Assembly (NCBI GenBank): GCA_037440025.1
Contig: JBBIUX010000002.1
Span: 82,975-146,974 of the forward strand
Reading direction: 5' to 3'
Source: Candidatus Fraserbacteria bacterium
Lineage (GTDB): Bacteria > Bipolaricaulota > Bipolaricaulia > RBG-16-55-9 > DRXL01
DNA length: 64,000 bases
Shown: piece by piece, positions 10,546-56,519 of the stretch
How positions within the stretch are numbered: the first letter of the stretch is position 1
How the letters are laid out: every line of letters begins with the position of its first letter
The notes under the pieces: model-generated
The model's database searches: none
Told to the model about the DNA's origin: nothing
What the model saw: the letters and a program-made list of their open reading frames with translations, nothing else
Program-made: the position numbers and the translations under genes

Positions 10546-10561
10546 GAGATAGACTCTCTCT

Positions 10562-10590
10562 CTTGCAATTTGCCCTTTAGTGCGTTATGA
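10562..10590 (+). promoter_or_regulatory. Sigma70-like promoter for rplM
   Basis: TTGCAA (10562-10567), a 17-nt spacer, then TATGAT (10585-10590). AAGGAGGA RBS at 10654-10661. Confidence 0.5.
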
Positions 10591-10664
10591 TAGCACATTC
10601 ATCATATCTCTGCAAGTTATGTCGTGCGCGGGGTGCTACACTCAATGAACCTAAGGAGGAAATA

Positions 10665-22896: not shown

Positions 22897-24303
22897 TTAT
22901 CGAGTTGTTTGTTCAAAAGCGTAGGCAGCTCGGAGCATCTTGGCTTCTTGCAGTTTATCTCCGACGATTTGCAGTCCAAAGGGCAAGCCCCCGACTGTGC
23001 CACCGGGGACAGAGATCGCCGGGATACCGGCCAGGCTCGCCGGTACCGTAAAAATATCCGAGAGATACATCGCTAAGGGATCGTCTACTTTCTCCCCCAG
23101 CTTGAAGGCCGGCGTCGGCGACGTAGGACAGATAATAACATCTACGGTCTTGAAGACCGTATCGAAATCTTGATGGATGAGCGCGCGGACTTTTTGAGCT
23201 TTGCCGTACCAGGCTTCGTAATACCCCGCGCTGAGCGCGTAGGTCCCGATCATAATGCGTCGCTTCACTTCCGGCCCAAAGCCCTTGTCGCGGCTCTCGG
23301 AGAACATTTCTTCCACTGAGGCGTTGCTCGCCCGTTGTGAGTAACGCACCCCGTCGTAGCGGGCCAAGTTGGCACTCGCTTCAGAAGATGAGATCAGATA
23401 GTACGCCGGGATCGTGTGCTGGCTATGAGGCAGCGAGATTTCCACAATCTGCGCTCCCAATTCTTGAAATGTCTTCCCCCAGTCGTTCACGCGCGCTTGG
23501 GCTTCTCCACTGAGGTCCGTCAAATACTCCTTCGGCAGTCCGATTTTGAAACCCTCGATATCGAATCCCAGCTCGCTCATGTAGTCATCGGTGCTGCGCT
23601 CGATGCTCGTTGAATCGTGTAGATCGCGGCCGGTGATAATATTTAGGACCAAAGCACAGTCCCGCACGTTCTTTGTGATTGGACCAATCTGATCTAAAGA
23701 ACTAGCGAACGCTACCAACCCATAGCGTGACACCAGCCCGTAGGTTGGCTTGAGCCCGACGACCCCACAGAGCGCCGAGGGCTGTCGGATCGAGCCTCCG
23801 GTGTCTGAACCGAGAGCACAGAGCGCTTCATGAGCTGCGACAGCTGCTGCTGAACCTCCTGAAGATCCGCCGGGGACGCGGGTCATATCGTGCGGGTTGC
23901 GCGTGGGGAAGAAGGCGCTGTTCTCTGTTGAAGACCCCATGCCGAACTCATCTAGATTTGTCTTGCCCAGCACAGTTGCACCGGCGTCTCTGAGATTTTT
24001 CACGGCAGTCGCCTCAAAGATCGGCTCAAAGTGCTCTAGAAATTTCGAGCCACAGGTCGTCTTGAAACCGATTGTCGAGATGTTGTCTTTCACTGAGATA
24101 GGCAAGCCATGCAATGAAGTATGAGCCAAACGCTCCACCTCACGAAGCATATCTTCCTGAGGAGCGAGGCTCACATACGCTTTGATCTGTTCTTCTGTAA
24201 CAGAGATAGCACGATAGAGATCAACAATCACCTCACGAGGGTGAATCTCCCCCTTGGTTATGAGATCAAGGAGCTCGTGCAGGGGCTTTTCGTTGAGATT
24301 CAT
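22897..24303 (-). CDS. gatA: Glutamyl-tRNA(Gln)/aspartyl-tRNA(Asn) amidotransferase subunit A
   Basis: Start at [15 protein letters not shown]...; amidase signature ...[13 protein letters not shown].... The track N-extension is rejected. Confidence 0.9.
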
Positions 24304-24310
24304 AAGAAAA

Positions 24311-24397
24311 TGGTGCCGAGGGAGGGACTTGAACCCACACGGGATTGCTCCCATACGGTCCTGAACCGTACGCGTCTGCCAGTTCCGCCACCCCGGC
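24311..24397 (-). tRNA. tRNA-Leu (anticodon CAG)
   Basis: Reverse complement: GCCGGGGTGGCGGAACTGGCAGACGCGTACGGTTCAGGACCGTATGGGAGCAATCCCGTGTGGGTTCAAGTCCCTCCCTCGGCACCA. It has a 7-bp acceptor stem, anticodon loop TTCAGGA, a long variable arm, T-loop GGTTCAAGTCC and a CCA end. Confidence 0.85.
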
Positions 24398-26232: not shown

Positions 26233-26307
26233 TGGAGCGGGCGACGGGATTCGAACCCGCGACACCTGGCTTGGGAAGCCAGTACTCTACCGCTGAGCTA
26301 CGCCCGC
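26233..26307 (-). tRNA. tRNA-Gly (anticodon CCC)
   Basis: Reverse complement: GCGGGCGTAGCTCAGCGGTAGAGTACTGGCTTCCCAAGCCAGGTGTCGCGGGTTCGAATCCCGTCGCCCGCTCCA. Anticodon loop TTCCCAA. Confidence 0.85.
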
Positions 26308-45131: not shown

Positions 45132-46319
45132 ATGCTGAACGCTCGCAAATGGTTCGCTGTGTCAGCTGTTTTATTATTGTTATTGGTCTTCATCGTCGCC
45201 CTGGACAATTACAACCAAGAATGGAAACAGTATCAACGAGCGTATCTGACGAAAATCTTCACGGACAAAGCTAGAACAGAGAAGGGGTCGCTTTCGTTGC
45301 TCGATCAGCTCATGATCGCTGTCAATGCCGAAACGAACCTTCAGATCAAAAAAGTCGTCACCGAAGTGGGCCGTAGCGCCGACTTGTGTATGAGCTGCCA
45401 TGCCAATATTGGCGTTTCGGGTTTCGAGCGAGAGCCTCTCCGGGACTTACGAGAGACCCACAAAGATGTGGCAGTTGTTCAAGAGCTTCCGTTCGATCAG
45501 ATTGGCTGTACGGCGTGTCATGGGGGCAATGCTCTGGCGCTGCGCGCCGAGCCGGCCCACCACGAGATGCGCACACGGTTTGCTCAGATTTTTGAAGAGA
45601 GCATCGAAAAGCTGCACTCAGGGAGTTGGGTTGAGCGCCAGCGGGGGATCGAGCGCATCCGCTGGATGACCGCCAACGATTTCGGTTTTCTCTTCAATGA
45701 CCCTCAAGAGAAGCGCGACGAAGTCATTCAGAAGATCGTCGCCTGGTGGCAACTGCACAAAGACACTTTCTTGGTCGAAGGTTTTGGGGAGCGCAGTTCA
45801 CCCTTCCGTACTGAAAACCCTCAAGCAAACGTGATCGAGCAGCGCACCGACGTCGCGGTCACCGGCGAGCCGTTGCAGTTTGTCGGATCGGCGACCTGTG
45901 TCGCGTGCCATGGCTACCCAGAGATCAGCGATGTCTACATCCCTGAGTCGAGCAAGCAACATGTCGAGCGCTGGTTCCGAGAAGAGTTTATGACGAGTAC
46001 AAACCCCGAAGAGTACCAAGATCATCCGTTCATAGACCAAGAGACGCTCAAGACGATGGACGTGACTTGTGAGGCCTGTCACGGTCCGGGGAGCGAGTAT
46101 ACGAAACTGATGCAAAAGGGCATGGCTCTGGAAGCAGCAGGCCAGAGCGTGGATGCGGCAGCGCTGATCGTAAAGGCGAAAGAAATCGCGCGGGTCAATG
46201 CTCGCCAGAACATCAGCGAGCATGACCCTGCGACAGGGTATGCTCGCATCTGGGCGATCTTCGAACGCTTGCTTGACAAAGCCCTCGCCAGCAAAGGACA
46301 AGTCCAGCCGACCGAATGA
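45132..46319 (+). CDS. Membrane-anchored tetraheme c-type cytochrome
   Basis: N-terminal TM helix and four CxxCH motifs (CMSCH, CTACH, CVACH, CEACH). Confidence 0.7.
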   Translation: MLNARKWFAVSAVLLLLLVFIVALDNYNQEWKQYQRAYLTKIFTDKARTEKGSLSLLDQLMIAVNAETNLQIKKVVTEVGRSADLCMSCHANIGVSGFEREPLRDLRETHKDVAVVQELPFDQIGCTACHGGNALALRAEPAHHEMRTRFAQIFEESIEKLHSGSWVERQRGIERIRWMTANDFGFLFNDPQEKRDEVIQKIVAWWQLHKDTFLVEGFGERSSPFRTENPQANVIEQRTDVAVTGEPLQFVGSATCVACHGYPEISDVYIPESSKQHVERWFREEFMTSTNPEEYQDHPFIDQETLKTMDVTCEACHGPGSEYTKLMQKGMALEAAGQSVDAAALIVKAKEIARVNARQNISEHDPATGYARIWAIFERLLDKALASKGQVQPTE

Positions 46320-46334
46320 CAGAAATCTTCACGG

Positions 46335-46363
46335 TTGACTTTCGCTCCAGTCTTTTCTAGAAT
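46335..46363 (+). promoter_or_regulatory. Sigma70-like promoter of the Rrf2 regulator operon
   Basis: TTGACT (46335-46340), a 17-nt spacer, then TAGAAT (46358-46363). Confidence 0.5.
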
Positions 46364-46366
46364 GAA

Positions 46367-46387
46367 CTCAGAGTATTTTACTCGGAG
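46367..46387 (+). promoter_or_regulatory. Candidate operator (imperfect inverted repeat) overlapping the transcription start
   Basis: CTCAGAGTA-ttt-TACTCGGAG, immediately downstream of the -10 and upstream of the Rrf2 gene. Consistent with autoregulation. Confidence 0.35.
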
Positions 46388-46402
46388 TTTGGAATTCTCC
46401 CT

Positions 46403-46834
46403 ATGAAAGTGACCCGAAAAAGCGATTACGGGCTGCGGGCGCTCTGCACCCTCGCCCGACAGTACAACCGAGAGCCGGTGTCCATTGGCCAGCTCTCAGC
46501 GGAGCACAAGATCCCGGAGCCCTTTCTGGAGAAGATCATGCAGGAGCTACGCGAGCATGGCTTGGTGGAGGCCACCCACGGGCGCGGCGGTGGGTACTTG
46601 CTCAAAAAACGCCCATCGCACATATCGCTGCGCGAGATCGTCAAGGCCCTGGACGGCCCCATCGCACTGGTGACCTGTCTCGATCCAGCACTGAAGTGTG
46701 CCATCGAAGCCGACTGCCCCACAAGCTCCGTCTGGGAGATCATTAACCAAAAGCTCGACGAGTATCTCGCGTCGTTAACCTTGGGCGACGTTATGACCAT
46801 GCAGCAGACCGAACGGGTGAAGGTCTCATCATGA
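46403..46834 (+). CDS. Rrf2-family transcriptional regulator (IscR/NsrR-like, putative Fe-S cluster ligands)
   Basis: MKVTRKSDYGLRALCTLA... wHTH domain. Cys cluster C92...C98...C104 (LVTCLDPALKCAIEADC). Confidence 0.8.
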   Translation: MKVTRKSDYGLRALCTLARQYNREPVSIGQLSAEHKIPEPFLEKIMQELREHGLVEATHGRGGGYLLKKRPSHISLREIVKALDGPIALVTCLDPALKCAIEADCPTSSVWEIINQKLDEYLASLTLGDVMTMQQTERVKVSS

Positions 46835-47880
46835 CACTCAGCGAGCGTGCCCGCACAGCCTTGCAAACCGTTGAGATTCCCACCGTACACCGACCACTGA
46901 ACGATTTAGTCGAGCATCTCTCGGTTGACGAGAAGCGATGTGCCCATGTGCGGATGCGCCTCATGCCAGCGTATGCCTCCAAATCCCAACTAAAAACGTG
47001 GACCGAGCAAGCGCTGAAAACAATCCCGGAAATCGAGAGCGTTCAGATAGAATTCGCTCAATCCCCCCGGCCCCACCCCCAAACAATGCATCCAACGCAT
47101 AAGCTGCACTTTCCCCAGATCGCTCATATGCTTGCAGTCTTCAGCGGCAAGGGCGGGGTGGGCAAGAGCACAGTGAGCGTCAATTTGGCTGTAGCACTGG
47201 CGCAGCAGGGCGCGCGAGTCGGGCTCTTTGACGCCGACGTGCATGGGCCCAATATTCCCACTTTACTCGGACTGCAAGGACAGCCCGAAGTGCAGGAGTC
47301 AAAGCTTATTCCCGTTTTCAAATACGGCATTCACGCCATGTCTATCGGGCTGCTCGTAGCCGGGAGCGATCCGCTCATCTGGCGCGGCCCGATGATCTCT
47401 AAAGCGATTAACGAACTCTTAGAGAGCACAGCCTGGCCGGAGCTGGACTATCTGATTTTGGATCTGCCACCGGGAACTGGGGATGCCCAGCTAGGCTTAG
47501 CCCAAGACGTGACGCTCGCCGGGGCTGTCGCTGTCACGACACCCCAAGAAGTAGCACTCTCAGATGTGCGTCGCGGCATCGGGGCGTTTCAGAAGCTCAA
47601 TGTGCCTATTGTGGGATTGATCGAGAATATGGCTTACTATGTTTGTCCCAAGTGTGGTCATCGGGAGTATATCTTTGGGCAGGGGGGCGGCGAAGCTGAA
47701 GCACGACGCCAGAATATCCCTTTGCTGGGACAAATTCCGCTTGACCCAAAGCTGCGCGAGGGCGGCGACTCCGGTATGCCCATCGTCATCGCTGAGCCAT
47801 CATCGCCGGCAGCACAAGGGTTCAAAGAGATCGCTGATTTTTTGATCGAGCGATTTGGCAAACAGCAAACAAAGGGGTGA
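46831..47880 (+). CDS. Fe-S cluster carrier ATPase Mrp/ApbC
   Basis: N-terminal DUF59-like domain, then deviant Walker A SGKGGVGKST and the CPKCGH motif. Confidence 0.85.
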   Translation: MTLSERARTALQTVEIPTVHRPLNDLVEHLSVDEKRCAHVRMRLMPAYASKSQLKTWTEQALKTIPEIESVQIEFAQSPRPHPQTMHPTHKLHFPQIAHMLAVFSGKGGVGKSTVSVNLAVALAQQGARVGLFDADVHGPNIPTLLGLQGQPEVQESKLIPVFKYGIHAMSIGLLVAGSDPLIWRGPMISKAINELLESTAWPELDYLILDLPPGTGDAQLGLAQDVTLAGAVAVTTPQEVALSDVRRGIGAFQKLNVPIVGLIENMAYYVCPKCGHREYIFGQGGGEAEARRQNIPLLGQIPLDPKLREGGDSGMPIVIAEPSSPAAQGFKEIADFLIERFGKQQTKG

Positions 47881-48191
47881 TAGCAGTGACCGCTGACGAT
47901 GTGCGCGAAGTGATCCGCGAGAACGTCTTCGACCCGGAGCTGGGCTACAACGTAGTGGATTTGGGGTTGCTGTATGACGTTGACATCCGCGGCGACAAAG
48001 ATATTCGCTTGGAGCTGACGCTCACGACTGTAGGCTGCCCTCTCTACGAGCAGATTCAAGCCGATTGTGAGCGCGCGATCAAAGAGCATTACGGCGAGGA
48101 CATCAATGTCGAAGTCGAGTTCGTCTTCGACCCGCCTTGGAACCCGGAGATGATGTCGGAAGAGATCCGCGCGGAAATGGGATTTATTTAA
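47877..48191 (+). CDS. DUF59 (MIP18/SufT-like) Fe-S assembly protein
   Basis: 104 aa, ...FDPELGYNVVDLGLLYDVDI...LTLTTVGCPLYEQI... Confidence 0.7.
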   Translation: MIAVTADDVREVIRENVFDPELGYNVVDLGLLYDVDIRGDKDIRLELTLTTVGCPLYEQIQADCERAIKEHYGEDINVEVEFVFDPPWNPEMMSEEIRAEMGFI

Positions 48192-48817
48192 TGTCCCTTT
48201 GTGTGTACTGTAGCAAGCGAGCAGGCAAGCGGGCCTGTCCGGCCTTGGGAGGGCTGATCTGCCCGACGTGCTGTGGGCAGCATCGCGGGGTTGATATTAA
48301 CTGCCCCATCAGTTGCAAGTATTTCAGAACGCACGAGAGCTATCAACGCCTCCGGCTCGCTGAAGAGTTTCATGCCCTCTGGATCGAAAAGACGGAGCCG
48401 CTCTACAAAGCGGGTAAAGAGAGGTTGATTGATTTTATCGCAATGGTAGAAATGCTCGTCTATCAATTCTATCGCGAGCGGGCCTTGGGCACGGACAGCG
48501 AAGTCTTGGAAGCTTTAGAATCGCTACGGCGTCGGTTCAGCCCCTTAATGATTGTGGAAGCGGGGGGGACAGCTCTGGCGAACCATCTTTGGAATGGGCT
48601 GCAAGAGTATTCAAAAAAAGAGCCGCTGGTTCCCGAAGAAGCCCAAGAAGGGATAGGGAAGAGTTTGGAGATTTTCAAAGCGTACTCAGACGCAACACAG
48701 CCGAGAAAGTATCTAAACGGGCTGTTAGGGCATGTCGAGCGATATTTTACGCTGCCCGCTGAACTCAAAGAGAGCCTGTCACTCATTGCTACTCCACAGA
48801 TTATCACACCGGAGTAA
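48191..48817 (+). CDS. Hypothetical protein with N-terminal 8-Cys cluster
   Basis: Start MSLCVYCSKRAGKRACPALGGLICPTCCGQHRGVDINCPISCKYF.... The track N-extension is rejected. Confidence 0.5.
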   Translation: MSLCVYCSKRAGKRACPALGGLICPTCCGQHRGVDINCPISCKYFRTHESYQRLRLAEEFHALWIEKTEPLYKAGKERLIDFIAMVEMLVYQFYRERALGTDSEVLEALESLRRRFSPLMIVEAGGTALANHLWNGLQEYSKKEPLVPEEAQEGIGKSLEIFKAYSDATQPRKYLNGLLGHVERYFTLPAELKESLSLIATPQIITPE

Positions 48818-48821
48818 TAGC

Positions 48822-49874
48822 TTATTGCCAGGGGATAACCCATTCCCATTGGGGCCCGCGGAAGTATTGCCCAATAATAATGAGCACAATAGCAGTGACA
48901 ATCATCACCGTAAAGAGCGCCGTCGTCACTGGGCGATCTCGCAGACGCCGCCCCACCGGCTTGCTCTTGTCTTTGCGCCAAAACTCTAAGTACGGCTCGA
49001 TGTAGGGAATTCCTAAGAGCAAGAGCACGAAAACCCCCGGCGCGATCACCCCGCCGATGGCCACGCTCGTAAACGGCCCTAGATTGGGTGAGATCGCCAA
49101 CAGCTCTTGAATGCCTACAAAGTACCAGGGGGCTTTCTCAGGGTTGGGCGTGAACGATGGGGTCGCTGGTTCTTCGAGAGGCGCATCCCGAAAGACTGAA
49201 TAAATCCCCAGCCCCGCCGTCAGCAAGAACAAGATTGTAAATGCTACATAGAGAAAATACGGATACGAGATGATCTCCTCTTCTTCGGCGGGTAAACGCT
49301 TGGCGAACGCATCCAGAATTTTTTGCACCTTCTCGTCGGTCAGTTCGAACTCGGTCGGGATCTCCTTCACTTTGTGCTCTTTCGACACATAATTAAAGAT
49401 CGTATGCAGGGTTTCAAAATCTCGCGGATCGCCGCCGCCTTCTAGTAACGACTCCGTGCGGTTGCTCAAGTCTTTAAGTCTTTTTACAGTGAGCGTTTGC
49501 GTCGAAGGAAGCTGGCGCAACGGGGCTTTTTCGGCGGCGTAGGCTAAGACATCGCGAATCAGGTCCGGTTCAACCTGGAGGGCTTCCGCGACTTCATAGC
49601 CGGGGATTTCAACTTCAATATCTTGGGTGACGTTGATCTGGCAGGTCAGCCGCCAGCCCTTGGCAATCTGCTCCTCGCCCAGGACATCAAGTTCGTTCTG
49701 GTTAGGATCGCCGCCGCCCTGTAAGACGCGCGCCGCGCAAGTTGAGCACTGCCCTTGGCCGCCGCAGGTCGCCGGAAGCTGGTCATCGTAGCGATTCTCT
49801 TGAATGAACTTTAAGAGATTGGTCCCCGGACGGACTTCAAACTCTTTCTGGCCAAGAATGACGACTTTGGGCAT
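48822..49874 (-). CDS. Fusion protein: plant-type 2Fe-2S ferredoxin (N-terminal) + cytochrome b C-terminal / b6f subunit IV (PetD)-like membrane domain
   Basis: N-terminal ...ATCGGQGQCSTCAARV...RLTCQ... (Fer2). C-terminal ...EEPATPSFTPNPEKAPWYFVGIQELLAI... plus three TM helices resembling PetD or the cytochrome b C-terminus. Confidence 0.65.
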   Translation of the reverse strand: MPKVVILGQKEFEVRPGTNLLKFIQENRYDDQLPATCGGQGQCSTCAARVLQGGGDPNQNELDVLGEEQIAKGWRLTCQINVTQDIEVEIPGYEVAEALQVEPDLIRDVLAYAAEKAPLRQLPSTQTLTVKRLKDLSNRTESLLEGGGDPRDFETLHTIFNYVSKEHKVKEIPTEFELTDEKVQKILDAFAKRLPAEEEEIISYPYFLYVAFTILFLLTAGLGIYSVFRDAPLEEPATPSFTPNPEKAPWYFVGIQELLAISPNLGPFTSVAIGGVIAPGVFVLLLLGIPYIEPYLEFWRKDKSKPVGRRLRDRPVTTALFTVMIVTAIVLIIIGQYFRGPQWEWVIPWQ

Positions 49875-49875
49875 A

Positions 49876-50562
49876 CTAGCTCGCTTTCACGCCAGCTTCG
49901 GTTACGGCTTTCTGTAGCTTCTCCAAGACCGGCTTGCCGCCGGGGTAACAGCCATCCAGCCGCGCTTTGTTTACTGCTAAAGCTTCAGCGAATTCTTCAC
50001 ACGTGGGGTAGCCACAAGCAAGACAGTCAAACCCCGGCAGCACAGCGCGCAATTTCGCCGCCGCGGGCGAGAGCGCTGGGGCAGCGGGCTTAGTCACTTC
50101 TTCGGCCTTCCCCTCAACTTTGGGCCAAGACATCACCAAGGGCTTAAAGAGCTCTATCTTCAGGTCGTTCTTCATCGAAACTTGGCAGGAGAGCACCCAG
50201 CCCTCCTTGCGCAGTTTATCGCTCAACGGGCCCAACATCGCCGTGGTGATCTGATCGGCCGGCAACCCTTCGATTGCCTTGACGCGACAGGTCGCGCAGG
50301 TGCCCTTGCCACCGCATTGAGCAAAGAGGTCATAGCCCGCTTTTTTGAGCGCCTGCATCAGATTCTGTTCTAAGGGCAAAACCAGCTCGTTGCCGTCGTT
50401 GGTGATTTTGACGCGCGCCTCTCCCTCAACGGTGAGCAAGTTTTTTACCAGACCCAAAACGAAAGCCACCGAGATGGCCATGAGGGCCATTGTCGCAACC
50501 GGTACGAGATAAACCATAAGATCAGTCACAAGCCCTTGTGAAAAGCTTGAAGCTGTTCTCAT
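49876..50562 (-). CDS. RnfB-like subunit: TM helix + 2Fe-2S ferredoxin domain + RnfB-type CxxCGxxxC Fe-S domain (start uncertain)
   Basis: ...QCGGKGTCATCRV...LSCQ... (Fer2) and ...DCLACGYPTCEEFAEA...DGCYPGG. The track's long N-extension overlapping rnfA is rejected. Start at 50562 or 50517. Confidence 0.55.
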   Translation of the reverse strand: MRTASSFSQGLVTDLMVYLVPVATMALMAISVAFVLGLVKNLLTVEGEARVKITNDGNELVLPLEQNLMQALKKAGYDLFAQCGGKGTCATCRVKAIEGLPADQITTAMLGPLSDKLRKEGWVLSCQVSMKNDLKIELFKPLVMSWPKVEGKAEEVTKPAAPALSPAAAKLRAVLPGFDCLACGYPTCEEFAEALAVNKARLDGCYPGGKPVLEKLQKAVTEAGVKAS

Positions 50563-51155
50563 CCTCCAAAGTCCCGAATATTGATCATCCCGGAAAAGCC
50601 GACGAAGCTCATAGCCATCAGGCCGGCGATAATCAGCGCTAAGCCGGGGCCCTTGAGGCCCTCCGGTATGGGAGCAAATCGTAAGCGCTCCCGGATCGCG
50701 GCCATCAAGATAATCGCTAAGGCCCAGCCTACACCGCCGCCAAAGCCATAGGCGACGCTCTGGGCAAACCCCAGATTCCACGTAGCAAGGGCAAAGAGCA
50801 CTCCACCCAAAATGGCGCAGTTGACTGTGATCAAAGGCAGAAAGACTCCTAACGACGTATACAGGGCAGGGAGGAAGCGCTTCATGAACATCTCCACGAC
50901 TTGCACCAAGAACGCAATGGTCACGATGTAGACAATGAGCGCAAGATAGCTCACTCCCAGGGGGTCGAGGACAAAGTGCTTGATGAGCCAATTGGCGGGC
51001 AAGGTCATAGTCAGCACGAAGATCACGGCCATGCCCATCCCCGACGCCGACGCGTATTCGCCCGAAACCCCGATAAATGGGCAGATTCCCAAGAACGTCG
51101 TGAGCAAAATGTTATTCGTCAGGATCGCACCCAGAACGATGAGAAAGACATCCAT
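50559..51155 (-). CDS. rnfA: Rnf complex subunit A (RnfA/NqrE family)
   Basis: 198 aa polytopic; ...NNILLTTFLGICPFIGVS.... Confidence 0.8.
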   Translation of the reverse strand: MDVFLIVLGAILTNNILLTTFLGICPFIGVSGEYASASGMGMAVIFVLTMTLPANWLIKHFVLDPLGVSYLALIVYIVTIAFLVQVVEMFMKRFLPALYTSLGVFLPLITVNCAILGGVLFALATWNLGFAQSVAYGFGGGVGWALAIILMAAIRERLRFAPIPEGLKGPGLALIIAGLMAMSFVGFSGMINIRDFGG

Positions 51156-51158
51156 ACG

Positions 51159-51857
51159 TTACGCGCCTCCTCCGATCTGGCCCCCCGGCGAATACTGACG
51201 CACGATCCCCACGTAAAGCCCCACGACCAGAAAAGCCCCCGCAGGGATGATCATGATGACCCAAGAAGTCCAACTGCTGAAGATCTGAATCCCAAATAAG
51301 CTGCCGAAGCCCAGCAGCTCACGGATGATGCCCAACAGTGTGAGAGACATCGTGAAGCCTAAGCCCACACCGATGGCATCTAAGGCCGACAGGCCCGGGC
51401 TGTTCTGGCTGGCAAAGGCTTCCGCGCGTCCCAGCACAAAACAGTTCGTAATAATCAACGGAACGTACGGCCCCAGGGCCGCCGACAACGGCGGCAGGTA
51501 CGCTCGCAGAGAGATGTCAACCACGGTGACCCAGAAGGCGATGACGATCATATACGCAGGCAGCCGCACCTCAGCAGGGATGACGTTGCGCAGGACAGCT
51601 ACGGTGGCGCTCGATGCGATGGTAGCGATCATGGTGGCCAACCCCATAGCCATGCCGTTGATGGCCATGTTGGTTGCACCCATGGTTGGACACATCGCTA
51701 AGATCATTCGAAACGTCGGGTTGTCGTCCCAGATATCTCGGACCAGCTCCTTCCATGATTTGGTCTGGGGCAGACGTTGTGTCAATGGAATCGCTGGGGC
51801 TGATGCTTGCATGACATTCGAAATTGCTGCTGTCTTCACTTCAGCCATGTGCCTCAA
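51159..51857 (-). CDS. rnfE: Rnf complex subunit E (RnfE/NqrD family)
   Basis: 232 aa polytopic; ...DDNPTFRMILAMCPTMG.... Confidence 0.8.
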   Translation of the reverse strand: MRHMAEVKTAAISNVMQASAPAIPLTQRLPQTKSWKELVRDIWDDNPTFRMILAMCPTMGATNMAINGMAMGLATMIATIASSATVAVLRNVIPAEVRLPAYMIVIAFWVTVVDISLRAYLPPLSAALGPYVPLIITNCFVLGRAEAFASQNSPGLSALDAIGVGLGFTMSLTLLGIIRELLGFGSLFGIQIFSSWTSWVIMIIPAGAFLVVGLYVGIVRQYSPGGQIGGGA

Positions 51858-51932
51858 CTCCTTCCGGCTTCTTAGGGTCAGCTATAAAAAGCATACTATA
51901 GTAGTCCGCTTTTTTCAAGGTCGTTCTTTGCC

Positions 51933-52634
51933 CTATTTTTTCTGGTCTTTCAGGGCCTTTCTCAAGTTGGCCATCGCTTCGTTCAGTAGGTCGCGCACCG
52001 TCGTTGACGTATACGTCGCCCCGGTGATGGCGTCGAACTGATAGGGAGCCTTAGGAGTGCTTTCATCCCGAAATTTGACGAACTCGATCTTCGGTCCAGT
52101 CTTGACCCCCTTGAACTGGCTCCAGAACTTCTCTTCGGTCATGCGAAAGCCCAAGCCGGGAGTCTCGCCGATCTCGAACTCGACCACATGGGCCCCCAGA
52201 ATTTCAGAGAGATCGGTCTTGAGAGCTGCTTGCATCGCGACCACGCCCTGAAAGCCGCTGCCCGTAATACGAACGACATAGGCCGACAGCTCCCCACCGA
52301 TCTTGTCCTGATAAAACTTCCAGTAGACGAAGCTGTCGGTCTTGATCTCTTCAATGTGCTCTTTGAAATACTGGTCGACCTGGGCAGGGGTCAGCTGGGG
52401 AAGCCCTTCTTTGGGGAAGAGTTCTTCAGCAGTGTAAGCACCCAAGGCCACGAGAATACTGGAGCGCAGACGGGCTTTCGCGTTAGCGGCGATAGTCGCC
52501 TTGGTCACTTCGTTGACGAGGGCCAAGAGCCCGCCAGCCACCACAGCGATGGCCGTGAGCACGAAGATCATGCGCCACTCGTGCGCACCGATCAGTGGTT
52601 TCTTCTTTTTAGTGGGGGTGTGTTGCTCAGCCAT
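51933..52634 (-). CDS. rnfG: Rnf complex subunit G (FMN-binding)
   Basis: N-terminal TM anchor and FMN-binding domain with ...ITGATYTSTTV... flavinylation motif. Confidence 0.75.
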   Translation of the reverse strand: MAEQHTPTKKKKPLIGAHEWRMIFVLTAIAVVAGGLLALVNEVTKATIAANAKARLRSSILVALGAYTAEELFPKEGLPQLTPAQVDQYFKEHIEEIKTDSFVYWKFYQDKIGGELSAYVVRITGSGFQGVVAMQAALKTDLSEILGAHVVEFEIGETPGLGFRMTEEKFWSQFKGVKTGPKIEFVKFRDESTPKAPYQFDAITGATYTSTTVRDLLNEAMANLRKALKDQKK

Positions 52635-52637
52635 GGG

Positions 52638-53756
52638 TCACCTCTTTTGCACAGCTGGTGCAGAGAAGCTCTTGGGAATCGTAAAACGATCGAGCAAGGG
52701 CGTGAACATGTTCCCTATTAAGATAGAGAACGTCACCCACTCGGCATAGCCTGTGAGGCCGCGCCCCAGCACAGTCAAAACTCCTAACATTATACCGAAG
52801 ATCCAACGTCCACGAACGGTCATGGGACTAGTAACGGGGTCGGTGGCGTTGAGAAAGGCTGCAAAGAGCAGCCCGCCGGAGAGCACGGCGTACAAGCCGT
52901 CGGGGAAGTCATTCGGCGCGGCAAAACTGAGCAACTGGGAGAGAAGCCCTGCGCTGAGGATCATCACAACGGAGACGCGCCAGTCAATGACCCGCGTTGA
53001 TAACAGATACAGCCCCCCCAGCAGGACGAGAATAGCTGACGTCGCCCCTAAACTATCAGCCCGGCCAAAGCCCGTCAAGAGCGTCAAGAGATCGGGATTA
53101 GCTATATCAGGAGAATTGAACGCCCCCAAGGGTGTCGCCTTAGCGATGGCATCTACAGCTTCAGCCGTCTCCGGGGACCAGTGCACCAAGCCCCCTAAGC
53201 CGTCGGTCAACGGATTGAAGGGCACGTACCATCTGGTAGTCATCGCCGAGGGGAACGCTAATAACAAAAAAGCTCGTCCACTGATAGCCGGATTGAAAAT
53301 GTTGTAGCCTGAGCCGCCAAAAAGTTCTTTGATGACAATAGCAAAGGCGATCCCAACCGCCACCATCCAGAAGGGCAGCGTCGGAGGCAGCGCCAGCGCA
53401 TACAACATGCACGTCACCAACAAGCCTTCGGTAATCTCGTGTTTGCGGATCGCACAGAACGTGAGTTCGACGATCCCCCCGATGAGATATGTCAAAAGAA
53501 TGATCGCCAGCGAACGCCAGCCATAAAAATAAATGCTCGCTAAGACCAAGGGAATGCAGGCAATGATCGGTGCTCCCATGTACCGTTGCATGCCGATGGC
53601 ATCACGAATGTAGGGTGCTTGGCGGGCAGATTTGTCGCTCCCGCCAAAGATCGAGTCTTTCAAGCCCTCCCAGAGAATGGCGAAACCGTCGCGGCGACGG
53701 GCTTGCAGATCGTGATGGATTTTTTCGAAGAAATTATAGATTCTGTCTTTTAACAT
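52638..53756 (-). CDS. rnfD: Rnf complex subunit D (RnfD/NqrB family)
   Basis: 372 aa polytopic membrane protein, NqrB/RnfD-like. Confidence 0.8.
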   Translation of the reverse strand: MLKDRIYNFFEKIHHDLQARRRDGFAILWEGLKDSIFGGSDKSARQAPYIRDAIGMQRYMGAPIIACIPLVLASIYFYGWRSLAIILLTYLIGGIVELTFCAIRKHEITEGLLVTCMLYALALPPTLPFWMVAVGIAFAIVIKELFGGSGYNIFNPAISGRAFLLLAFPSAMTTRWYVPFNPLTDGLGGLVHWSPETAEAVDAIAKATPLGAFNSPDIANPDLLTLLTGFGRADSLGATSAILVLLGGLYLLSTRVIDWRVSVVMILSAGLLSQLLSFAAPNDFPDGLYAVLSGGLLFAAFLNATDPVTSPMTVRGRWIFGIMLGVLTVLGRGLTGYAEWVTFSILIGNMFTPLLDRFTIPKSFSAPAVQKR

Positions 53757-53765
53757 TCTGGCTCC

Positions 53766-55190
53766 TTAGACCGCCTCTTCTATGATTTTGCGTTTGCCCT
53801 CGCGGATCTGTTCGAGCAACGGGATTTTACTGGGGCAGACATACGCACAGAGTCCGCACTCGATACACGCAAAGAGATCAATATGCTGGGCTTCGCTTAG
53901 AAGACCGTTGGCCGAGTATTCTCCCAAGAGAGCCGGCACCAAATTCTGTGGACAAATGTCAACACAATACCCGCATTTGACGCAAGGGCGAGGGTTCCCA
54001 TTGAGGCTCGTCGTAGCCCGCTTCGTTTTGACCCAGGGCAGACTGAGATAGGCCCCCGTAAAAGAATCCCGGTCAAAACCGGGGCCGGCAACGGGAAAGA
54101 GCTCTCTCTCGGCTTCTCTGAGGGCGATGACTGCCGGGGTATCTTTGAGAATGGGCGCCTCGACATCGCCTTGGGCTTGTCCACGCAAGACGCCTCCCAG
54201 GACAATGCGTCCGTTGCTCTTGAGGTTATTGTCGAGCAAGTCCTGCAACGGTGTCCCTACTCGCACGCGGAAGTTCCCCGGTTCTTTGAGGGCCGATCCG
54301 GCGACGGAGACAACACGCTCCACAAAGGGCCGCCCTTCGACCACGGCCTTATACGTAGCGACACAGTGCTGAACATCTTGCACAACACACTGAACGTCCG
54401 TGGCGTAGCCCCGCTGGGGCATGAGCAGCCCCAGCAGCGTGCGGATCAAGACGGCGTCGTCGCCCTGGGGGTATTTGGGGCGCAATTGATGAATTGTGCA
54501 CCAGTCATAGTATTCGAATCGCGTGACCAATTCTTCGTAGATTCTGGGCTTGTTATAGCCGAGCCCAATATGGACCTGCACGTTGCCCAGGGCTTGCCGA
54601 AGAATTTTGATGCCGTTGACGAACTGGTCAAACTCTTCGTACATTAATTGATCAGTCGCTTCGCAGAACGGTTCAGTTTCTATGGCGTTGATCAATAAAT
54701 AGCGAATGCGATCGGGTGTGGTCAGGGCCGAGTGAAAGACTGTGGGAAAGCCGGCTTGGCCTCCGGAAGTCACTCCGGCTTCGTAGAGAATCTTCCCCAG
54801 CTCTGCTGGGGAGAGGCGCTCGTAGTTGGCCGGGCGGTCGAGCAATTTCCAATCGTCTCTGCCGTCAGATTCGATAATGACAGAGAGCACCTCGCCGCTC
54901 AGGGGGTGCGGGCGCTTCTCTATTTTGAGAATTTTTCCCGAGATGCTAGTGTGAACCGGCGTTGATGGCTTTTGCGGATCGGGCTCATTGCGTCCGATGA
55001 TCTGTCCTGCCTTGACGCGGTCACCTTCTTTGACACCAGGCGCCACTTCGGCGCCGAAGCCCTGACGCAAAGGGATAATAACTTTCTTTGGGAGTGACGC
55101 GGTTTTCAATCGCTTGCCGCGCGGGGTCCCCTCAAAGAGCCCAAAATAGTGTCCGCCCTGAAAGGTCTTTAGCGATCCCAGAACGGCCAT
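53766..55190 (-). CDS. rnfC: Rnf complex subunit C (NADH-binding, two [4Fe-4S] clusters)
   Basis: Start MAVLGSLKTFQGGHY (ATG 55190). ...LLINAIETEPF..., and C-terminal CVKCGYCVDICP + CIECGLCAYVCP, which distinguish RnfC from NqrA. The track N-extension is rejected. Confidence 0.8.
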   Translation of the reverse strand: MAVLGSLKTFQGGHYFGLFEGTPRGKRLKTASLPKKVIIPLRQGFGAEVAPGVKEGDRVKAGQIIGRNEPDPQKPSTPVHTSISGKILKIEKRPHPLSGEVLSVIIESDGRDDWKLLDRPANYERLSPAELGKILYEAGVTSGGQAGFPTVFHSALTTPDRIRYLLINAIETEPFCEATDQLMYEEFDQFVNGIKILRQALGNVQVHIGLGYNKPRIYEELVTRFEYYDWCTIHQLRPKYPQGDDAVLIRTLLGLLMPQRGYATDVQCVVQDVQHCVATYKAVVEGRPFVERVVSVAGSALKEPGNFRVRVGTPLQDLLDNNLKSNGRIVLGGVLRGQAQGDVEAPILKDTPAVIALREAERELFPVAGPGFDRDSFTGAYLSLPWVKTKRATTSLNGNPRPCVKCGYCVDICPQNLVPALLGEYSANGLLSEAQHIDLFACIECGLCAYVCPSKIPLLEQIREGKRKIIEEAV

Positions 55191-55191
55191 C

Positions 55192-55950
55192 TTATTGTTT
55201 CTTCCTTTCTTCGGTCCAATATGGCTTGCTGTACTCGTCTTTACGAATTCTCCAGAAATGCAGCGCGACCAGAAAGACCAACGCCATCGGGAGAACGAAG
55301 ACATGAATGACGTACCAGCGCAAGAGCGAGGGCTGCCAGAGATCCGTGCCTCCCAAGAGAATCTGTTGCACATAGAACCCGATAAACGGCGTGCCATCGG
55401 CGATGTTGCTGGCAATCTTAGCTGCATAGTAGCCTAATTGATCCCAAGGCAAGATATACCCACTGAAAGCGAACATAATCGTAATCACCAAGAGCAAGAC
55501 GCCGATGACCCAGTTGAACTCACGCGGCTTCTGATACGATCCGGTAAAGAAAACTCTCAACATATGGAAGAAGACGGCGAAGACCATCAGCTCGGCGGCC
55601 CACTTGTGCATGTTGCGCATGAAACGTCCCAAAGGGACAGCGTTGACGATCTCGCGGATCGAATCATACGCCCGCTCGGCGGAGGGCACATAGTAAAACA
55701 TCAGAAAGACCCCGGTAATCACTGTGATCAGAAAGAGCCAGGTGGAGACGACTCCCATCCAGAGCCAATTGTAGCTGAGCCGCGCGGATTCTCTGTGAAT
55801 TTTGGCGGGCAAGATGTGCACGAAGAAGTTGCGGCGGTTCATCGCCAGCAGATCGGCCTTGGTCTGAGGGAGTCCCTCGCGACGGAAGATCGAGAGCCAG
55901 AGGCGCGAGCGCCGAATGCTCTGGAGAACGAGCAGGAGCCTATCCATCAT
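55192..55950 (-). CDS. petB: Cytochrome b6-type subunit (N-terminal half of cytochrome b; PetB-like)
   Basis: Four TM helices with bis-His haem ligands (...HKWAAELMVFAVFFHML... and ...HVFVLPMALVFLVALHFW...). No C-terminal half. Confidence 0.75.
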   Translation of the reverse strand: MMDRLLLVLQSIRRSRLWLSIFRREGLPQTKADLLAMNRRNFFVHILPAKIHRESARLSYNWLWMGVVSTWLFLITVITGVFLMFYYVPSAERAYDSIREIVNAVPLGRFMRNMHKWAAELMVFAVFFHMLRVFFTGSYQKPREFNWVIGVLLLVITIMFAFSGYILPWDQLGYYAAKIASNIADGTPFIGFYVQQILLGGTDLWQPSLLRWYVIHVFVLPMALVFLVALHFWRIRKDEYSKPYWTEERKKQ

Positions 55951-56519
55951 GAGAACTTGATGTCACTCCCATCGGGCGCAGGTCCCTCGATGGCTTTTCC
56001 ATCGGCAGTCAGATACTGCGTGTTCGAGGCGATCTTGGCGTTGTCGACTTGGAGACGTCCGTCAGGCGTGAGGGTCAGCTCATAAAACGGCAGTGGTCGC
56101 GGCGCTGGTCCTCCCAAGACTCGCCCGTCCCGCGCGAAGACGCTGCCGTGACAAGGGCAGAGGGCATGTACTTCTTGATACTCTTTGCTAGGAGGCCCAA
56201 AGGGTTTATAGCTACATCCCAGATGCGTGCAGACCATCGAGAGTGCCTGAAAACCAATTGGTGTGCGAAAGATGAAAACCCGTTTCGCTTCGATGGGCCT
56301 CATCTCGCCAATTTGATAATCACCGGGACGACCCACGGTAAACGTCGTGGTGGGCTCATAGGTTAATTGCGGCTTGAGATAGTAGGGAATACTTTGGGCA
56401 ACCCCGCCCATGGCCAACGCGAACGAGCCCCAGCCCAGCCATCCAAGGAATTTCCTTCGCGTCAGCGAGCTTCTCTCTGTGGGAAATTCAAAACTTGAGT
56501 CTTTGTCCGCCTCCATCAA
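55947..56519 (-). CDS. petC: Rieske [2Fe-2S] iron-sulfur protein with Tat signal
   Basis: RRKFLGW twin-arginine motif; CTHLGC...CPCHGS Rieske boxes. Confidence 0.8.
   Translation of the reverse strand: MMEADKDSSFEFPTERSSLTRRKFLGWLGWGSFALAMGGVAQSIPYYLKPQLTYEPTTTFTVGRPGDYQIGEMRPIEAKRVFIFRTPIGFQALSMVCTHLGCSYKPFGPPSKEYQEVHALCPCHGSVFARDGRVLGGPAPRPLPFYELTLTPDGRLQVDNAKIASNTQYLTADGKAIEGPAPDGSDIKFS

Follow-up and report, generated by a model that had tools for sequence, protein, structure and literature searches.

Rieske/cytochrome b genes interleaved with Rnf genes in Bipolaricaulota: a candidate NAD(H)-linked Rieske/cytochrome b complex

Layout and recurrence of the operon

What kind of machine is encoded by an operon in which rnf genes lie between the two halves of a split cytochrome b? 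We addressed this question in a 64,000-nucleotide stretch of a Candidatus Fraserbacteria genome (the window), in which nine intact, co-directional open reading frames occupy positions 48822-56516 of the minus strand, with all cofactor ligands intact. Their order is Rieske protein, cytochrome b6-type N-terminal half, RnfC, RnfD, RnfG, RnfE, RnfA, an atypical RnfB (hybrid B), and a subunit IV-type protein fused to a 2Fe-2S domain (Fer2::PetD); all coordinates below refer to the minus strand. A sequence-only reading of this DNA had placed the rnf genes between petB and a petD-like gene, as the gene order bears out, and profile searches upheld all of its domain calls. A sigma-70-type promoter (56574-56546; TTGACA, 17-nt spacer, TATAAT, extended -10 TG) lies in the 68 nt that separate the asnS stop from the Rieske start. 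It agrees with the consensus at 12/12 positions and is the sole perfect match in 10 kb; downstream of it come a ribosome-binding site, GGAG, and the ATG of the Rieske gene. Successive spacings from the Rieske gene to the Fer2::PetD gene are -4, 1, 9, 3, 84, 3, 41, and 1 nt. Only one of the two 4-nt overlaps described earlier was found, while the 1-nt petB/rnfC gap was correct; likewise, the ceiling of about 75 nt on spacers holds if rnfE begins at a TTG, but the largest spacer is 84 nt when counted to its ATG. One promoter and tight spacing support the proposal that the nine genes form a single operon.

The same cluster order recurs in 25 species-representative Bipolaricaulota genomes, at protein identities of 38-96%, and on metagenome contigs; given its recurrence in those 25 genomes, the arrangement is not due to chance. 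It comes in two forms: a full form, which the window matches, and a reduced form. The arrangement had been thought undescribed, but Takami et al. 2012 (PMC3267732) had mentioned, in one sentence and with no analysis, that in Ca. Acetothermum autotrophicum rnfCDGEAB form a cluster together with genes for Rieske and cytochrome b proteins. We found no later analysis of the cluster in the literature.

Redox subunits and their ligands

The Rieske 2Fe-2S protein (189 aa, 55947-56516; PF00355) carries a twin-arginine signal/anchor (TRRKFLGW); its cluster boxes read CTHLGC and CPCHGSVF, and its Cys/His ligands and RR motif are invariant across 20 loci. Its best PDB matches are Kuste4569 (9rk4_A, E 2e-20) and Kustd1480 (9rk3_A, E 1.6e-12), the Rieske proteins of two NAD(P)-oxidoreductase-containing anammox complexes, with Em values of +303 and +335 mV, respectively. 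The box of the window protein has the Ser and a Tyr-to-Phe substitution, as in Kustd1480, and its cluster is presumably high-potential. No c-type cytochrome is encoded among the nine genes of the operon, and a multiheme cytochrome c lies nearby in some full-form loci only. One carrier of the cluster (L014) is a "type I" Acetothermia metagenome-assembled genome; Nar, Nrf, and cytochrome c oxidases are reported for this type, so that its lineage, at least, has high-potential acceptors.

The cytochrome b6-type N-terminal half (252 aa, 55192-55950; PF00033, E 7e-45) has four helices and two b hemes, and its alignment to cytochrome b6 (1vf5_A, E 3e-47) is free of gaps. Loss of heme ligands had been raised as a concern; H115, H129, H216, and H231 are invariant and have the b6 spacing. 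The position of b6 Cys35 is a Trp, so heme cn is not expected, whereas the 1vf5_A alignment shows that Arg207 of b6, near the n-side site, is kept as Arg236. The best NCBIfam match is ExtP (259 bits, under the cutoff of 290). Among the nearest five outgroup cytochromes b examined (45-51% identity), four have the gene for a GltD/NfnB-like NAD(P)H Fe-S flavoprotein immediately upstream of their own, and three of these four operons go on with PetD, Rieske, and, where the contig permits, cytochrome c. NAD(P) linkage is thus a trait that recurs in this cytochrome b lineage.

RnfC (474 aa, 53766-55190; TIGR01945, 328 bits, cutoff 246) combines an NAD(H)/FMN module with two 4Fe-4S clusters, whose eight Cys are all invariant, and matches Acetobacterium woodii RnfC (9eri_C) at E 2.5e-62. 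A family-specific insertion of ~33 aa (residues ~361-398) directly precedes the Fe-S domain; this insertion and the loops GxGxAGFPT and NA(I/V)ETEP are kept in full and reduced forms alike. The FMN loop is derived (GGQAGFPT), and the Lys of the canonical HVK motif is substituted. If RnfC binds NAD(H), as we assume, it would provide the only recognisable soluble-substrate site. RnfD (372 aa, 52638-53756; PF03116, E 2e-89; TIGR01946, 255 bits, cutoff 207) has the flavinylation-loop Thr (DAIAKATPL) in the full form and most reduced forms, with losses in L003, L028, and L029. RnfG (233 aa, 51933-52634; FMN_bind, PF04205) consists of an N-terminal anchor and a periplasmic FMN domain with the flavinylation motif DAITGAT, of which TGAT is invariant in full-form loci. 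In RnfE (229 aa from the ATG, 51159-51848; PF02508; NF009070, 211 bits, cutoff 184) both conserved Cys, by homology ligands of an intramembrane 2Fe-2S cluster, are invariant, as are Cys25 and Cys113 of RnfA (198 aa, 50559-51155; PF02508, Rnf-Nqr family).

The two remaining proteins depart from known subunits. Hybrid B (213 aa, 49876-50517; Fer2 plus PF04060) begins with a membrane helix and an NqrF-like 2Fe-2S domain, which an Ala/Pro-rich linker joins to an RnfB-type Cys-rich Fe-S domain; it matches residues 10-126 of NqrF (8a1t_F, E 1e-9) and residues 34-86 of RnfB (7zc6_B). By these matches it is an NqrF/RnfB chimera, an architecture found in ~57 protein clusters among 5.8 billion, the few organism-named ones being assigned to Bipolaricaulota, Bipolaricaulia, or Acetothermia. 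Profile searches and structure-sequence matches found no ferredoxin-type 4Fe-4S domains in hybrid B. RnfC, D, G, E, and A of the supposedly complete Rnf set are therefore accompanied by a non-canonical RnfB, and because the ferredoxin-type domains are lacking there is no visible ferredoxin port, contrary to an earlier suggestion of reverse electron flow from quinol to ferredoxin.

Could ferredoxin, or another low-potential donor, dock on hybrid B, at its exposed C-terminal 4Fe-4S domain or at its 2Fe-2S domains? The complex would then be a ferredoxin:NAD+/quinone oxidoreductase serving Wood-Ljungdahl metabolism, its electrons split between a path through RnfA/E-G-D-C to NAD+, with ion pumping, and one through Fer2::PetD and heme bn to quinone. 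Many members of the phylum are Wood-Ljungdahl acetogens, which must dispose of reduced ferredoxin, and no ligand of the ion-translocating Rnf core is missing from the full form. A possible input port is suggested by locus L043, in which the NuoC-like subunit of an Mbh/Mrp-type NiFe hydrogenase carries a homologous Fer2-FeS module (44% identity) as a fusion; hydrogenases of this type normally use ferredoxin. However, the polyferredoxin domains of the RnfB ferredoxin-side chain are absent, the reduced form keeps the hybrid B gene after losing the pump, and the Rieske subunit would have no role, all of which makes ferredoxin input improbable.

Fer2::PetD (350 aa, 48822-49874; Fer2, PF00111; ExtQ, NF040970, E 3e-13) starts with a cytoplasmic 2Fe-2S domain that resembles NqrF, continues with a conserved helical domain (~100 aa), and ends in three transmembrane helices of the cytochrome b C-terminal or subunit IV type, with the Qo-loop motif PEKAPWYF. 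The Cytochrom_B_C match is weak (18.1 bits, under the Pfam cutoff of 20.7); the subunit-IV identity follows from the ExtQ match and from alignment of the C-terminal part with the C halves of full-length cytochromes b (E ~1e-22). An AF2 model of low confidence (pLDDT 71) has a Fer2 fold, the helical domain, and three long helices. The architecture is confined to this Bipolaricaulota clade, and in L003, L028, and L029 the fusion is replaced by two separate genes.

The reduced form

Are the pet and rnf products parts of one complex or of two? The reduced form, found in 11 of the 25 genomes, is without rnfG, rnfE, and most of rnfA and keeps Rieske, cytochrome b, RnfC, RnfD, hybrid B, and Fer2/PetD in order. 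Its hybrid B bears a deletion scar: the N terminus is a remnant of the C-terminal half of RnfA (residues ~104-188, E 2e-8 to 1e-11) without Cys113. Because both sets are kept, the pet and rnf parts stay together once canonical Rnf function is destroyed, which favours a single integrated complex over two that share a transcript. The physical and functional coupling proposed in the sequence-only reading is thus likely, as the association outlives the loss of RnfG, RnfE, and RnfA and the two adaptor proteins, hybrid B and Fer2::PetD, are confined to the clade.

Two independent, co-transcribed complexes—an Rnf whose RnfB is unusual, and a Rieske/cytochrome b complex that has no cytochrome c1 and had its petD moved away by a rearrangement—would be hard to reconcile with an interleaved order conserved across the phylum, or with sets that stay together after a loss of RnfG/E/A that would inactivate an independent Rnf. 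Both adaptors, moreover, bear extra cytoplasmic Fe-S domains that would have no role in stand-alone complexes, and the ferredoxin-type domains of RnfB are missing. Unrelated respiratory genes can indeed share an operon, neither module lacks any of its own core ligands, and cytochrome c1-less Rieske/cytochrome b operons exist elsewhere, for example in green sulfur bacteria; even so, we consider two separate complexes very unlikely.

Direction of electron flow and comparison with known systems

How might electrons move through such an assembly? The explanation that we tentatively prefer is a single membrane complex in which a quinol-oxidising, b6-type Rieske/cytochrome b module is wired to an Rnf-derived NAD(H) module and runs from quinol to NAD+. 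Its assembly, the order of its clusters, the way in which electrons flow, and the coupling to ions are inferred and would be as follows. Instead of closing a Q-cycle, the cytoplasmic (n) side of cytochrome b would be wired to the Rnf-derived module through three extra, clade-only Fe-S domains: the Fer2 domain of subunit IV and the NqrF-like 2Fe-2S and RnfB-type 4Fe-4S domains of hybrid B. The 2Fe-2S domain at the N terminus of subunit IV should sit beside the n-side heme b, and RnfC, with its FMN and two 4Fe-4S clusters, would be the only NAD(H) site. Quinol would be oxidised at Qo, one electron passing through the Rieske cluster, with its relatively high potential, to a periplasmic acceptor whose gene lies elsewhere and the low-potential electron moving from heme bp to heme bn and along the Fe-S wire to RnfC, where NAD+ would be reduced. 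Anammox bacteria have NAD(P)-linked Rieske/cytochrome b complexes for which NAD(P)+ reduction by the low-potential branch has been proposed in the same way. The wire of the full form, to which the window belongs, could also feed the ion-translocating RnfA/E-G-D path; in the reduced form, from which that path is lost, hybrid B would have to join RnfC/RnfD directly.

Several observations count against this explanation. The intact RnfA/E-G-D path of the full form has no explained role in it. Canonical Rnf couples electron flow from the B side to RnfC with ion export, so that a donor well below -320 mV would be needed in that direction, a value that heme bn may fail to attain once the electron has been moved across the membrane against the potential. 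The lack of a c-type cytochrome in the operon, the derived FMN loop of RnfC, and a subunit-IV part that scores below the Pfam cutoff and has a low-confidence model count against it as well.

The same wiring could also run in reverse, as an NADH:quinone (or NADH:cytochrome c) oxidoreductase. NADH would be oxidised at RnfC and its electrons carried along the Fe-S wire and heme bn to quinone at the n-side site—an NQR-like enzyme made from Rnf parts and a cytochrome b quinone site—and the Rieske/Qo side would re-oxidise the quinol as a normal bc complex does. This direction suits the NqrF-like anchor and 2Fe-2S domain of hybrid B, the retention of Arg236, and RnfC as the sole substrate site, and electron transfer from NADH to menaquinone is strongly exergonic. 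In Na+-NQR, the NqrF 2Fe-2S domain feeds the NqrD/E cluster. In the full form, however, the path from RnfC through D, G, and A/E to B would, judging from Rnf/Nqr reversibility, be the ion-import direction, with energy dissipated twice. Related type I genomes already have a Nuo complex, the Ser-containing, presumably high-potential Rieske cluster would be left without a reason, and the equivalent idea for the anammox complexes was rejected by Hauser et al. (PMC12954380) as an enormous energy loss. We regard the reverse direction as the likeliest of the alternatives, albeit an unlikely one.

How does a complex running from quinol to NAD+ compare with known systems? The cluster OP4C155-162 of Ca. 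Acetothermum autotrophicum (PMC3267732) is operon-like and evidently the same as that of the window, whereas Takami et al. assigned it to acetogenesis, as a ferredoxin:NAD+ Rnf of the canonical kind; their account includes neither the hybrid RnfB nor the Fer2::PetD gene nor the reduced form. Genome studies that read the operon as an ordinary ferredoxin-driven Rnf pump have probably misread it.

Cytochrome b6f, the Firmicute/heliobacterial bc complexes, and ExtP/ExtQ share with the window a split cytochrome b and a three-helix subunit IV, and the likeness to cytochrome b6 extends to His spacing and gap-free alignment. In the window, however, six genes separate petB and petD, subunit IV bears a cytoplasmic 2Fe-2S domain, the operon encodes neither cytochrome f nor c1 nor a diheme c, heme cn is expected to be absent, and the Qo motif is PEKAPWYF instead of PEWY. 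The Na+-NQR of Vibrio cholerae (8A1T, 7XK3) resembles the window in its NqrF, with which the helix and 2Fe-2S domain of hybrid B align and to which the Fer2 domain of Fer2::PetD is also closest. In contrast, hybrid B has no FAD/NADH domain, the A-type subunit is RnfC-like with Fe-S clusters rather than NqrA, and the B-E subunits score as Rnf over Nqr. Of the Rnf complex (RnfABCDGE; A. woodii 9ERI, Clostridium tetanomorphum 7ZC6, Azotobacter vinelandii 8AHX) the window has clear orthologues of RnfC, D, G, E, and A with all cofactor ligands, in the order rnfCDGEA-B of clostridial-type operons. It differs in an RnfB that has gained an NqrF-like 2Fe-2S domain and is without ferredoxin-type 4Fe-4S domains, in the RnfC insertion, in the flanking pet genes, and in the existence of a derived form without RnfG/E/A.

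The closest conceptual precedent, not considered in the sequence-only reading, is provided by the NAD(P)-oxidoreductase-containing complexes of anammox bacteria (Kuenenia Kuste4569-4574 and Kustd1480-1485; Kartal 2013; Hauser et al. 2025, PMC12954380). They have in common with the window a b6-like four-helix cytochrome b, a subunit-IV-like protein, a Rieske protein, and a cytoplasmic Fe-S/flavin NAD(P) module within the same operon. Whereas the anammox module is a GltD/NfnB-like FAD protein, that of the window is RnfC/RnfD with or without RnfG/E/A, connected by a wire of 2Fe-2S domains that include the one on subunit IV; the window operon is also without a multiheme cytochrome c, an HAO-like subunit, and the heme cn cysteine, and in its full form carries an Rnf core that is potentially ion-translocating. 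The mechanism proposed for the anammox complexes, in which the low-potential branch of Qo bifurcation reduces NAD(P)+, would transfer directly to the window.

Operon layout and chromosomal setting

What is encoded between positions 48822 and 56516? Nine intact ORFs, all on the minus strand and in one direction, fill this region: a PF00355-type Rieske protein with a Tat signal (55947–56516), a b6-type cytochrome b N-terminal half (55192–55950), RnfC (53766–55190), RnfD (52638–53756), RnfG (51933–52634), RnfE (51159–51848), RnfA (50559–51155), a 213-aa protein with a Fer2 domain and PF04060 (hereafter hybrid B; 49876–50517), and a 350-aa fusion of a Fer2 domain to a subunit IV–like part with an ExtQ match (Fer2::PetD; 48822–49874). 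The spacings, in gene order from the Rieske gene to Fer2::PetD, are −4, 1, 9, 3, 84, 3, 41, and 1 nt. A perfect promoter (TTGACA-17-TATAAT with an extended −10 TG; 56574–56546, minus strand), followed by a GGAG site, sits within the 68-nt gap after asnS, and promoter-like matches inside the operon stay at background level. Pfam and NCBIfam together confirmed every domain call of the sequence-only reading. With six or more genes between them, petB and petD are not adjacent as in split b6f-type operons.

The window is ordinary chromosome (EF-G, MutL, PGK, GlmS, acetyl-CoA synthetase, FtsH, Dxr, and AsnS) with a GC content of ~55%, and those homologs that bear names are labeled Bipolaricaulota, Acetothermia, or Fraserbacteria. 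Convergent to the operon on the plus strand (45132–48817) are genes for a tetraheme c-type cytochrome (four CxxCH), an Rrf2-family regulator, an Mrp/NUBPL-type Fe-S carrier ATPase, a FeS_assembly_P (DUF59) protein, and a Cys-rich 226-aa protein without a Pfam match, whose end lies 4 nt from the stop codon of Fer2::PetD. At 17643–20179 the GC content drops to 0.49 (vs. ~0.55) where an N6-adenine/Eco57I-type restriction-modification methylase gene is located, which may have been acquired horizontally. An Rfam scan of the window returned nothing beyond two minus-strand tRNA genes (24314–24397 and 26236–26307). The first of these overlaps the 5′ end of a mechanically called amidase ORF (22897–24354), so the true start of that ORF is probably further downstream.

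Composition of the subunits

The cytochrome b aligns without gaps to cyanobacterial b6 (1vf5_A, E 3e-47) as a four-helix protein, and its four His heme ligands (H115, H129, H216, and H231) have b6 spacing and are invariant across the loci compared. The heme cn Cys (Cys35 of b6) is not present; Trp64 stands at that position in 20 of 20 loci. The Rieske protein combines a twin-arginine signal for Tat export with the CTHLGC and CPCHGSVF boxes and their disulfide pair, and CTHLGC, CPCHGS, and RR are all invariant in 20 loci. So is the potential-raising Ser of the Rieske box, and Phe is found at the Tyr position in 19 of the 20; the window protein has Ser and Phe, the same combination as Kustd1480. 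Among all solved structures, its top two matches are 9rk4_A (Kuste4569, E 2e-20) and 9rk3_A (Kustd1480, E 1.6e-12), the Rieske proteins of anammox complexes that contain an NAD(P) oxidoreductase (Hauser et al. 2025, PMC12954380); these two proteins have midpoint potentials of +303 and +335 mV, respectively. The best match to a b6f Rieske protein has an E value of 2e-11. No CxxCH protein, and hence no c-type cytochrome subunit (f, c1, or diheme c), lies inside the operon in any locus.

How much of an Rnf complex is encoded here? RnfC, RnfD, and RnfE (RsxE model) exceed their NCBIfam cutoffs, and RnfA (217 vs. 229) and RnfG (87 vs. 102) fall slightly under theirs with clear Pfam matches, so that orthologs of RnfC, D, G, E, and A are encoded together. 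RnfC matches its Acetobacterium woodii counterpart (9eri_C, E 2.5e-62). All eight of its 4Fe-4S Cys are invariant, both in the full form of the cluster seen in the window and in a reduced form without rnfG, rnfE, and most of rnfA; its Gly-rich FMN/NADH loop is derived, yet conserved. Directly before the Fe-S domain RnfC carries an insertion of ~33 residues, which is absent from solved RnfCs and kept in full and reduced forms alike. Four Cys of RnfA/E, by homology the ligands of the intramembrane 2Fe-2S cluster, are invariant, as is the RnfG flavinylation motif TGAT; the flavinylation Thr of RnfD is present in an atypical context (AKAT). The complete Rnf complex proposed from the sequence alone thus holds for these five subunits and their ligands, and fails for RnfB: the protein in that role has no ferredoxin-type 4Fe-4S (Fer4) domains and reaches 43 bits with TIGR01944, whose cutoff is 69.

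What, then, is hybrid B? In alignments, the membrane helix plus 2Fe-2S domain of Vibrio cholerae NqrF (8a1t_F 10–126, E 1e-9) has its counterpart in residues ~8–125, and the N-terminal, Cys-rich Fe-S domain of RnfB (7zc6_B and 8ahx_B) in residues ~149–201. Comparison with Pfam, NCBIfam, and the PDB recovered PF04060 alone of the RnfB set; instead of Fer4 domains, hybrid B has an inserted NqrF-like 2Fe-2S domain. Judged by its domain content, hybrid B is no ordinary RnfB; it is an NqrF/RnfB chimera, which may bear on the origin of Na+-NQR from Rnf. A Fer2 + Fe-S module homologous to that of hybrid B (44% identity) and without a membrane helix also occurs in a comparison locus, L043 (4410–5393, protein P0143), fused to a NuoC-like (Complex1_30kDa) subunit in a gene cluster for an Mbh/Mrp-type group-4 NiFe hydrogenase. 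Such a module may serve as a portable domain for electron input or for wiring.

Three parts make up the product of the last gene: a 2Fe-2S domain like that of NqrF, a helical domain of ~100 residues that is conserved, and three transmembrane helices that are homologous to subunit IV, the C-terminal half of cytochrome b, and align with the C halves of full-length cytochromes b. The subunit IV part matches ExtQ (E 3e-13), scores below the cutoff for PF00032 (18.1 vs. 20.7), and has a PEWY-type Qo loop whose motif, PEKAPWYF, is invariant. In b6f the N terminus of subunit IV faces the n side. Because Fer2::PetD also has no signal peptide, its extra 2Fe-2S domain should be cytoplasmic and near heme bn. 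The Fer2 domains of hybrid B and Fer2::PetD are paralogous (31% identity, E 2e-11). An AF2 model of Fer2::PetD (pLDDT 71, pTM 0.39), in which the membrane part is poorly modeled, yielded Foldseek matches in the PDB to 2Fe-2S ferredoxins and NqrF only, with none for the helical linker domain.

Distribution and the two architectures

How widespread is this cluster? Among bacterial and archaeal genomes, scanned at one per species, 25 contain Fer2::PetD relatives, all of them Bipolaricaulota-type metagenome-assembled genomes (MAGs). Among 5.8 billion proteins searched, the Fer2::PetD and Fer2+FeS architectures form only about 50–57 clusters of this clade, few of which carry an organism name. When all loci were searched by tblastn with the nine window proteins, two architectures emerged. 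The full form is present in 14 species genomes, including two distant loci (L002 and L023) at only 41–70% identity. The reduced form, found in 11, retains Rieske, cytochrome b, RnfC, RnfD, hybrid B, and Fer2::PetD and lacks rnfG, rnfE, and rnfA; Fer2 and PetD are separate genes in 3 of these 11. The cluster is real and conserved. Reduced-form hybrid B is longer by ~100–120 residues, and this extension aligns to RnfA residues ~104–188 (E 2e-8 to 1e-11) with Cys113 missing. Such an RnfA remnant marks a deletion scar, which makes the full form ancestral.

Could the operon simply hold two independent complexes that share a transcript? Long after loss of the ion-translocating core, the Rieske and cytochrome b genes are still found with RnfC, RnfD, and both adaptor proteins, and the heme, Rieske, and RnfC ligands are all invariant in both forms. 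This co-retention, the two adaptors, the invariant ligands, and the kept RnfC insertion together argue strongly against independent complexes.

The chain of extra Fe-S domains in hybrid B and Fer2::PetD varies in length: two proteins (P0116 and P0123) have two Fe-S domains, and one locus, L016, has an extra Fer2 protein. There (8400–10830; proteins P0144 and P0126), a 259-aa RnfA-remnant::helix::Fer2 protein without an Fe-S domain comes first, then a soluble Fer2-FeS protein of 185 aa encoded separately, and then Fer2::PetD, for three Fer2 domains in total. By gene content L016 is an intermediate architecture. It groups with the full-form clade in a midpoint-rooted neighbor-joining tree, a position that suggests that rnfG/E/A loss may have occurred more than once.

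No conserved cytochrome c partner was found near the operon; multi-CxxCH ORFs occur near some full-form loci only. The tetraheme cytochrome gene of the window, on the other strand and 2.5 kb from the operon, is limited to the window clade, where it recurs at the same distance in four loci (L009, L011, L012, and L027). Just upstream of the Rieske gene in L002 (524–2239) and L023 (856–2589) lies a divergent gene, on the minus strand in both, for a ~570-aa pentaheme cytochrome c. It is a candidate periplasmic partner, without a counterpart in reduced-form loci.

The sequence-only reading was not aware of any described operon of this kind. One sentence in Takami et al. 2012 (PMC3267732) precedes it, stating the association of rnfCDGEAB of Ca. 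Acetothermum autotrophicum with Rieske/cytochrome b; the paper treats it as a canonical Rnf for acetogenesis. We found no mention of the association in later literature on the phylum. Nor did any account of the hybrid RnfB, of the fusion of Fer2 to subunit IV, of the reduced form, or of a link to NAD(P)-linked Rieske/cytochrome b complexes come up in a search that covered few subscription journals, so that absence there is not proof. Type I Acetothermia MAGs have been stated to encode no Rnf (Colman et al. 2022). Contrary to that statement, contig JAJHSH010000054.1 (L014) of MAG NSHQ14B.2017.Bin6, type I by the same authors' classification, carries the full Rieske-cytb-rnfCDGEA-hybB-Fer2::PetD cluster at 70–91% identity to the window.

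Proposed electron path and relation to known complexes

The cluster encodes a b6-type Qo/two-heme module, a clade-specific cytoplasmic Fe-S chain, and an NAD(H)-type flavoprotein. From this content we infer that the nine gene products form one assembly in which heme bn is connected to the Rnf-derived part. Electrons would pass from heme bn to the 2Fe-2S cluster of the PetD fusion, to the 2Fe-2S and 4Fe-4S clusters of hybrid B, and on to the Rnf-derived part. A ferredoxin-fed variant of the complex, which would fit the retained RnfC, D, G, E, and A, is an unlikely alternative; the cluster proteins contain neither a ferredoxin-type input domain nor a c-type cytochrome.

In which direction would such an assembly run? 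An NQR-like direction, from NADH to quinone, is a less likely alternative. Three observations point the other way, from quinol to NAD+: the Ser-containing box of the Rieske protein and its kinship with the anammox proteins; the NAD(P)-linked outgroup operons (see below); and the presence of the cluster in L014, from type I Acetothermia, for which Nuo, Nar, Nrf, and cytochrome c oxidases have been reported. Quinol oxidation at Qo would send one electron to the relatively high-potential Rieske cluster and an external periplasmic acceptor, and the low-potential electron to NAD+ at RnfC. Modeled on the anammox complexes, in which NAD(P)H formation by quinol bifurcation is itself a proposal (PMC12954380), this reading, assembly included, is the most likely one, and we advance it tentatively, at a little short of even confidence.

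For the full form, an extension of the bifurcation reading can be formulated that we consider unlikely. The cytochrome b hemes would replace ferredoxin as donor to the ion-translocating Rnf core: quinone-based bifurcation at Qo, with a high-potential periplasmic acceptor as its pull, would deliver electrons of ferredoxin level along the 2Fe-2S/4Fe-4S chain to RnfA/E-G-D-C, so that quinol oxidation would both reduce NAD+ and drive ion export. In canonical Rnf and Nqr, ion export is coupled to electrons moving from the B/F side toward the C/quinone side, and to feed the intact RnfA/E-G-D path of the full form from heme bn takes a donor well below −320 mV. If true, this reading would unite the two classic respiratory mechanisms within one enzyme, a coupling not known before, and would supply a natural intermediate between RnfB and NqrF. 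Closed-loop schemes, in which NADH would feed both the Rieske cluster, through the periplasmic RnfD/RnfG flavins, and the b hemes, with both routes converging on Qo, were rejected on energetic grounds, because every direction is doubly dissipative or doubly uphill. The flavinylation Thr of RnfD is missing in some reduced-form loci, which argues against an obligatory Rieske–RnfD contact.

Bipolaricaulota/Acetothermia have repeatedly been presented as deep-branching acetogens that use a canonical ferredoxin:NAD+ Rnf for energy. In the lineages examined, the genes annotated as that Rnf would instead be part of a different machine, with no visible ferredoxin port and tied to a quinol-oxidizing module. 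The chimera and the natural reduced form also offer tools to separate the requirements of electron transfer from those of ion pumping in Rnf and Nqr.

How does the complex compare with its relatives? Clade cytochromes b are at least 60% identical to that of the window and the next relatives at most 55%. One sequence at 60% (L040, 2020–2775) is preceded, like the L003 locus, by a divergent aldehyde dehydrogenase gene, but with no Rieske gene between them; its contig ends right after cytochrome b. Five outgroup contexts were inspected. In four, which contain the nearest outgroup cytochromes b (45–51% identity), a gene for a GltD/NfnB-like NAD(P)H Fe-S flavoprotein lies directly upstream of cytochrome b (L041, 3653–6402; L045, 2924–7686; L046, 4486–10112; L047, 4965–9740). 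PetD-like and Rieske genes follow downstream in L045, L046, and L047—in the latter two with a cytochrome c after them—and the L041 contig stops at cytochrome b. The L047 cytochrome b (P0257) is labeled marine Dehalococcoidales. The fifth context, L042, has the conventional operon order petB-petD-Rieske-cytochrome c. An NAD(P)-linked architecture of the anammox type thus seems widespread outside anammox bacteria, and the cluster together with these gene neighborhoods suggests that NAD(P)-linked Rieske/cytochrome b complexes are a widespread class rather than an anammox curiosity.

The window complex differs from split b6f-type complexes in having no petB-petD adjacency, no c-type cytochrome, and no heme cn Cys. 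From Na+-NQR it differs in lacking the NqrF FAD/NADH domain and in an A-type subunit with two 4Fe-4S motifs, although hybrid B matches the first ~126 NqrF residues. Multiheme cytochrome c subunits are encoded in the anammox operons and not here, and the role of flavoprotein falls here to RnfC, a protein without homology to the Kuenenia or outgroup GltD/NfnB-like subunit; the NAD(P) module appears to have been recruited at least twice, from unrelated families. Even so, the Rieske protein is related to Kuste4569 and Kustd1480 and carries the potential-raising Ser, and the anammox set of b6-like cytochrome b, subunit IV–like protein, Rieske protein, and cytoplasmic NAD(P)-binding Fe-S flavoprotein is matched here, by analogy only.
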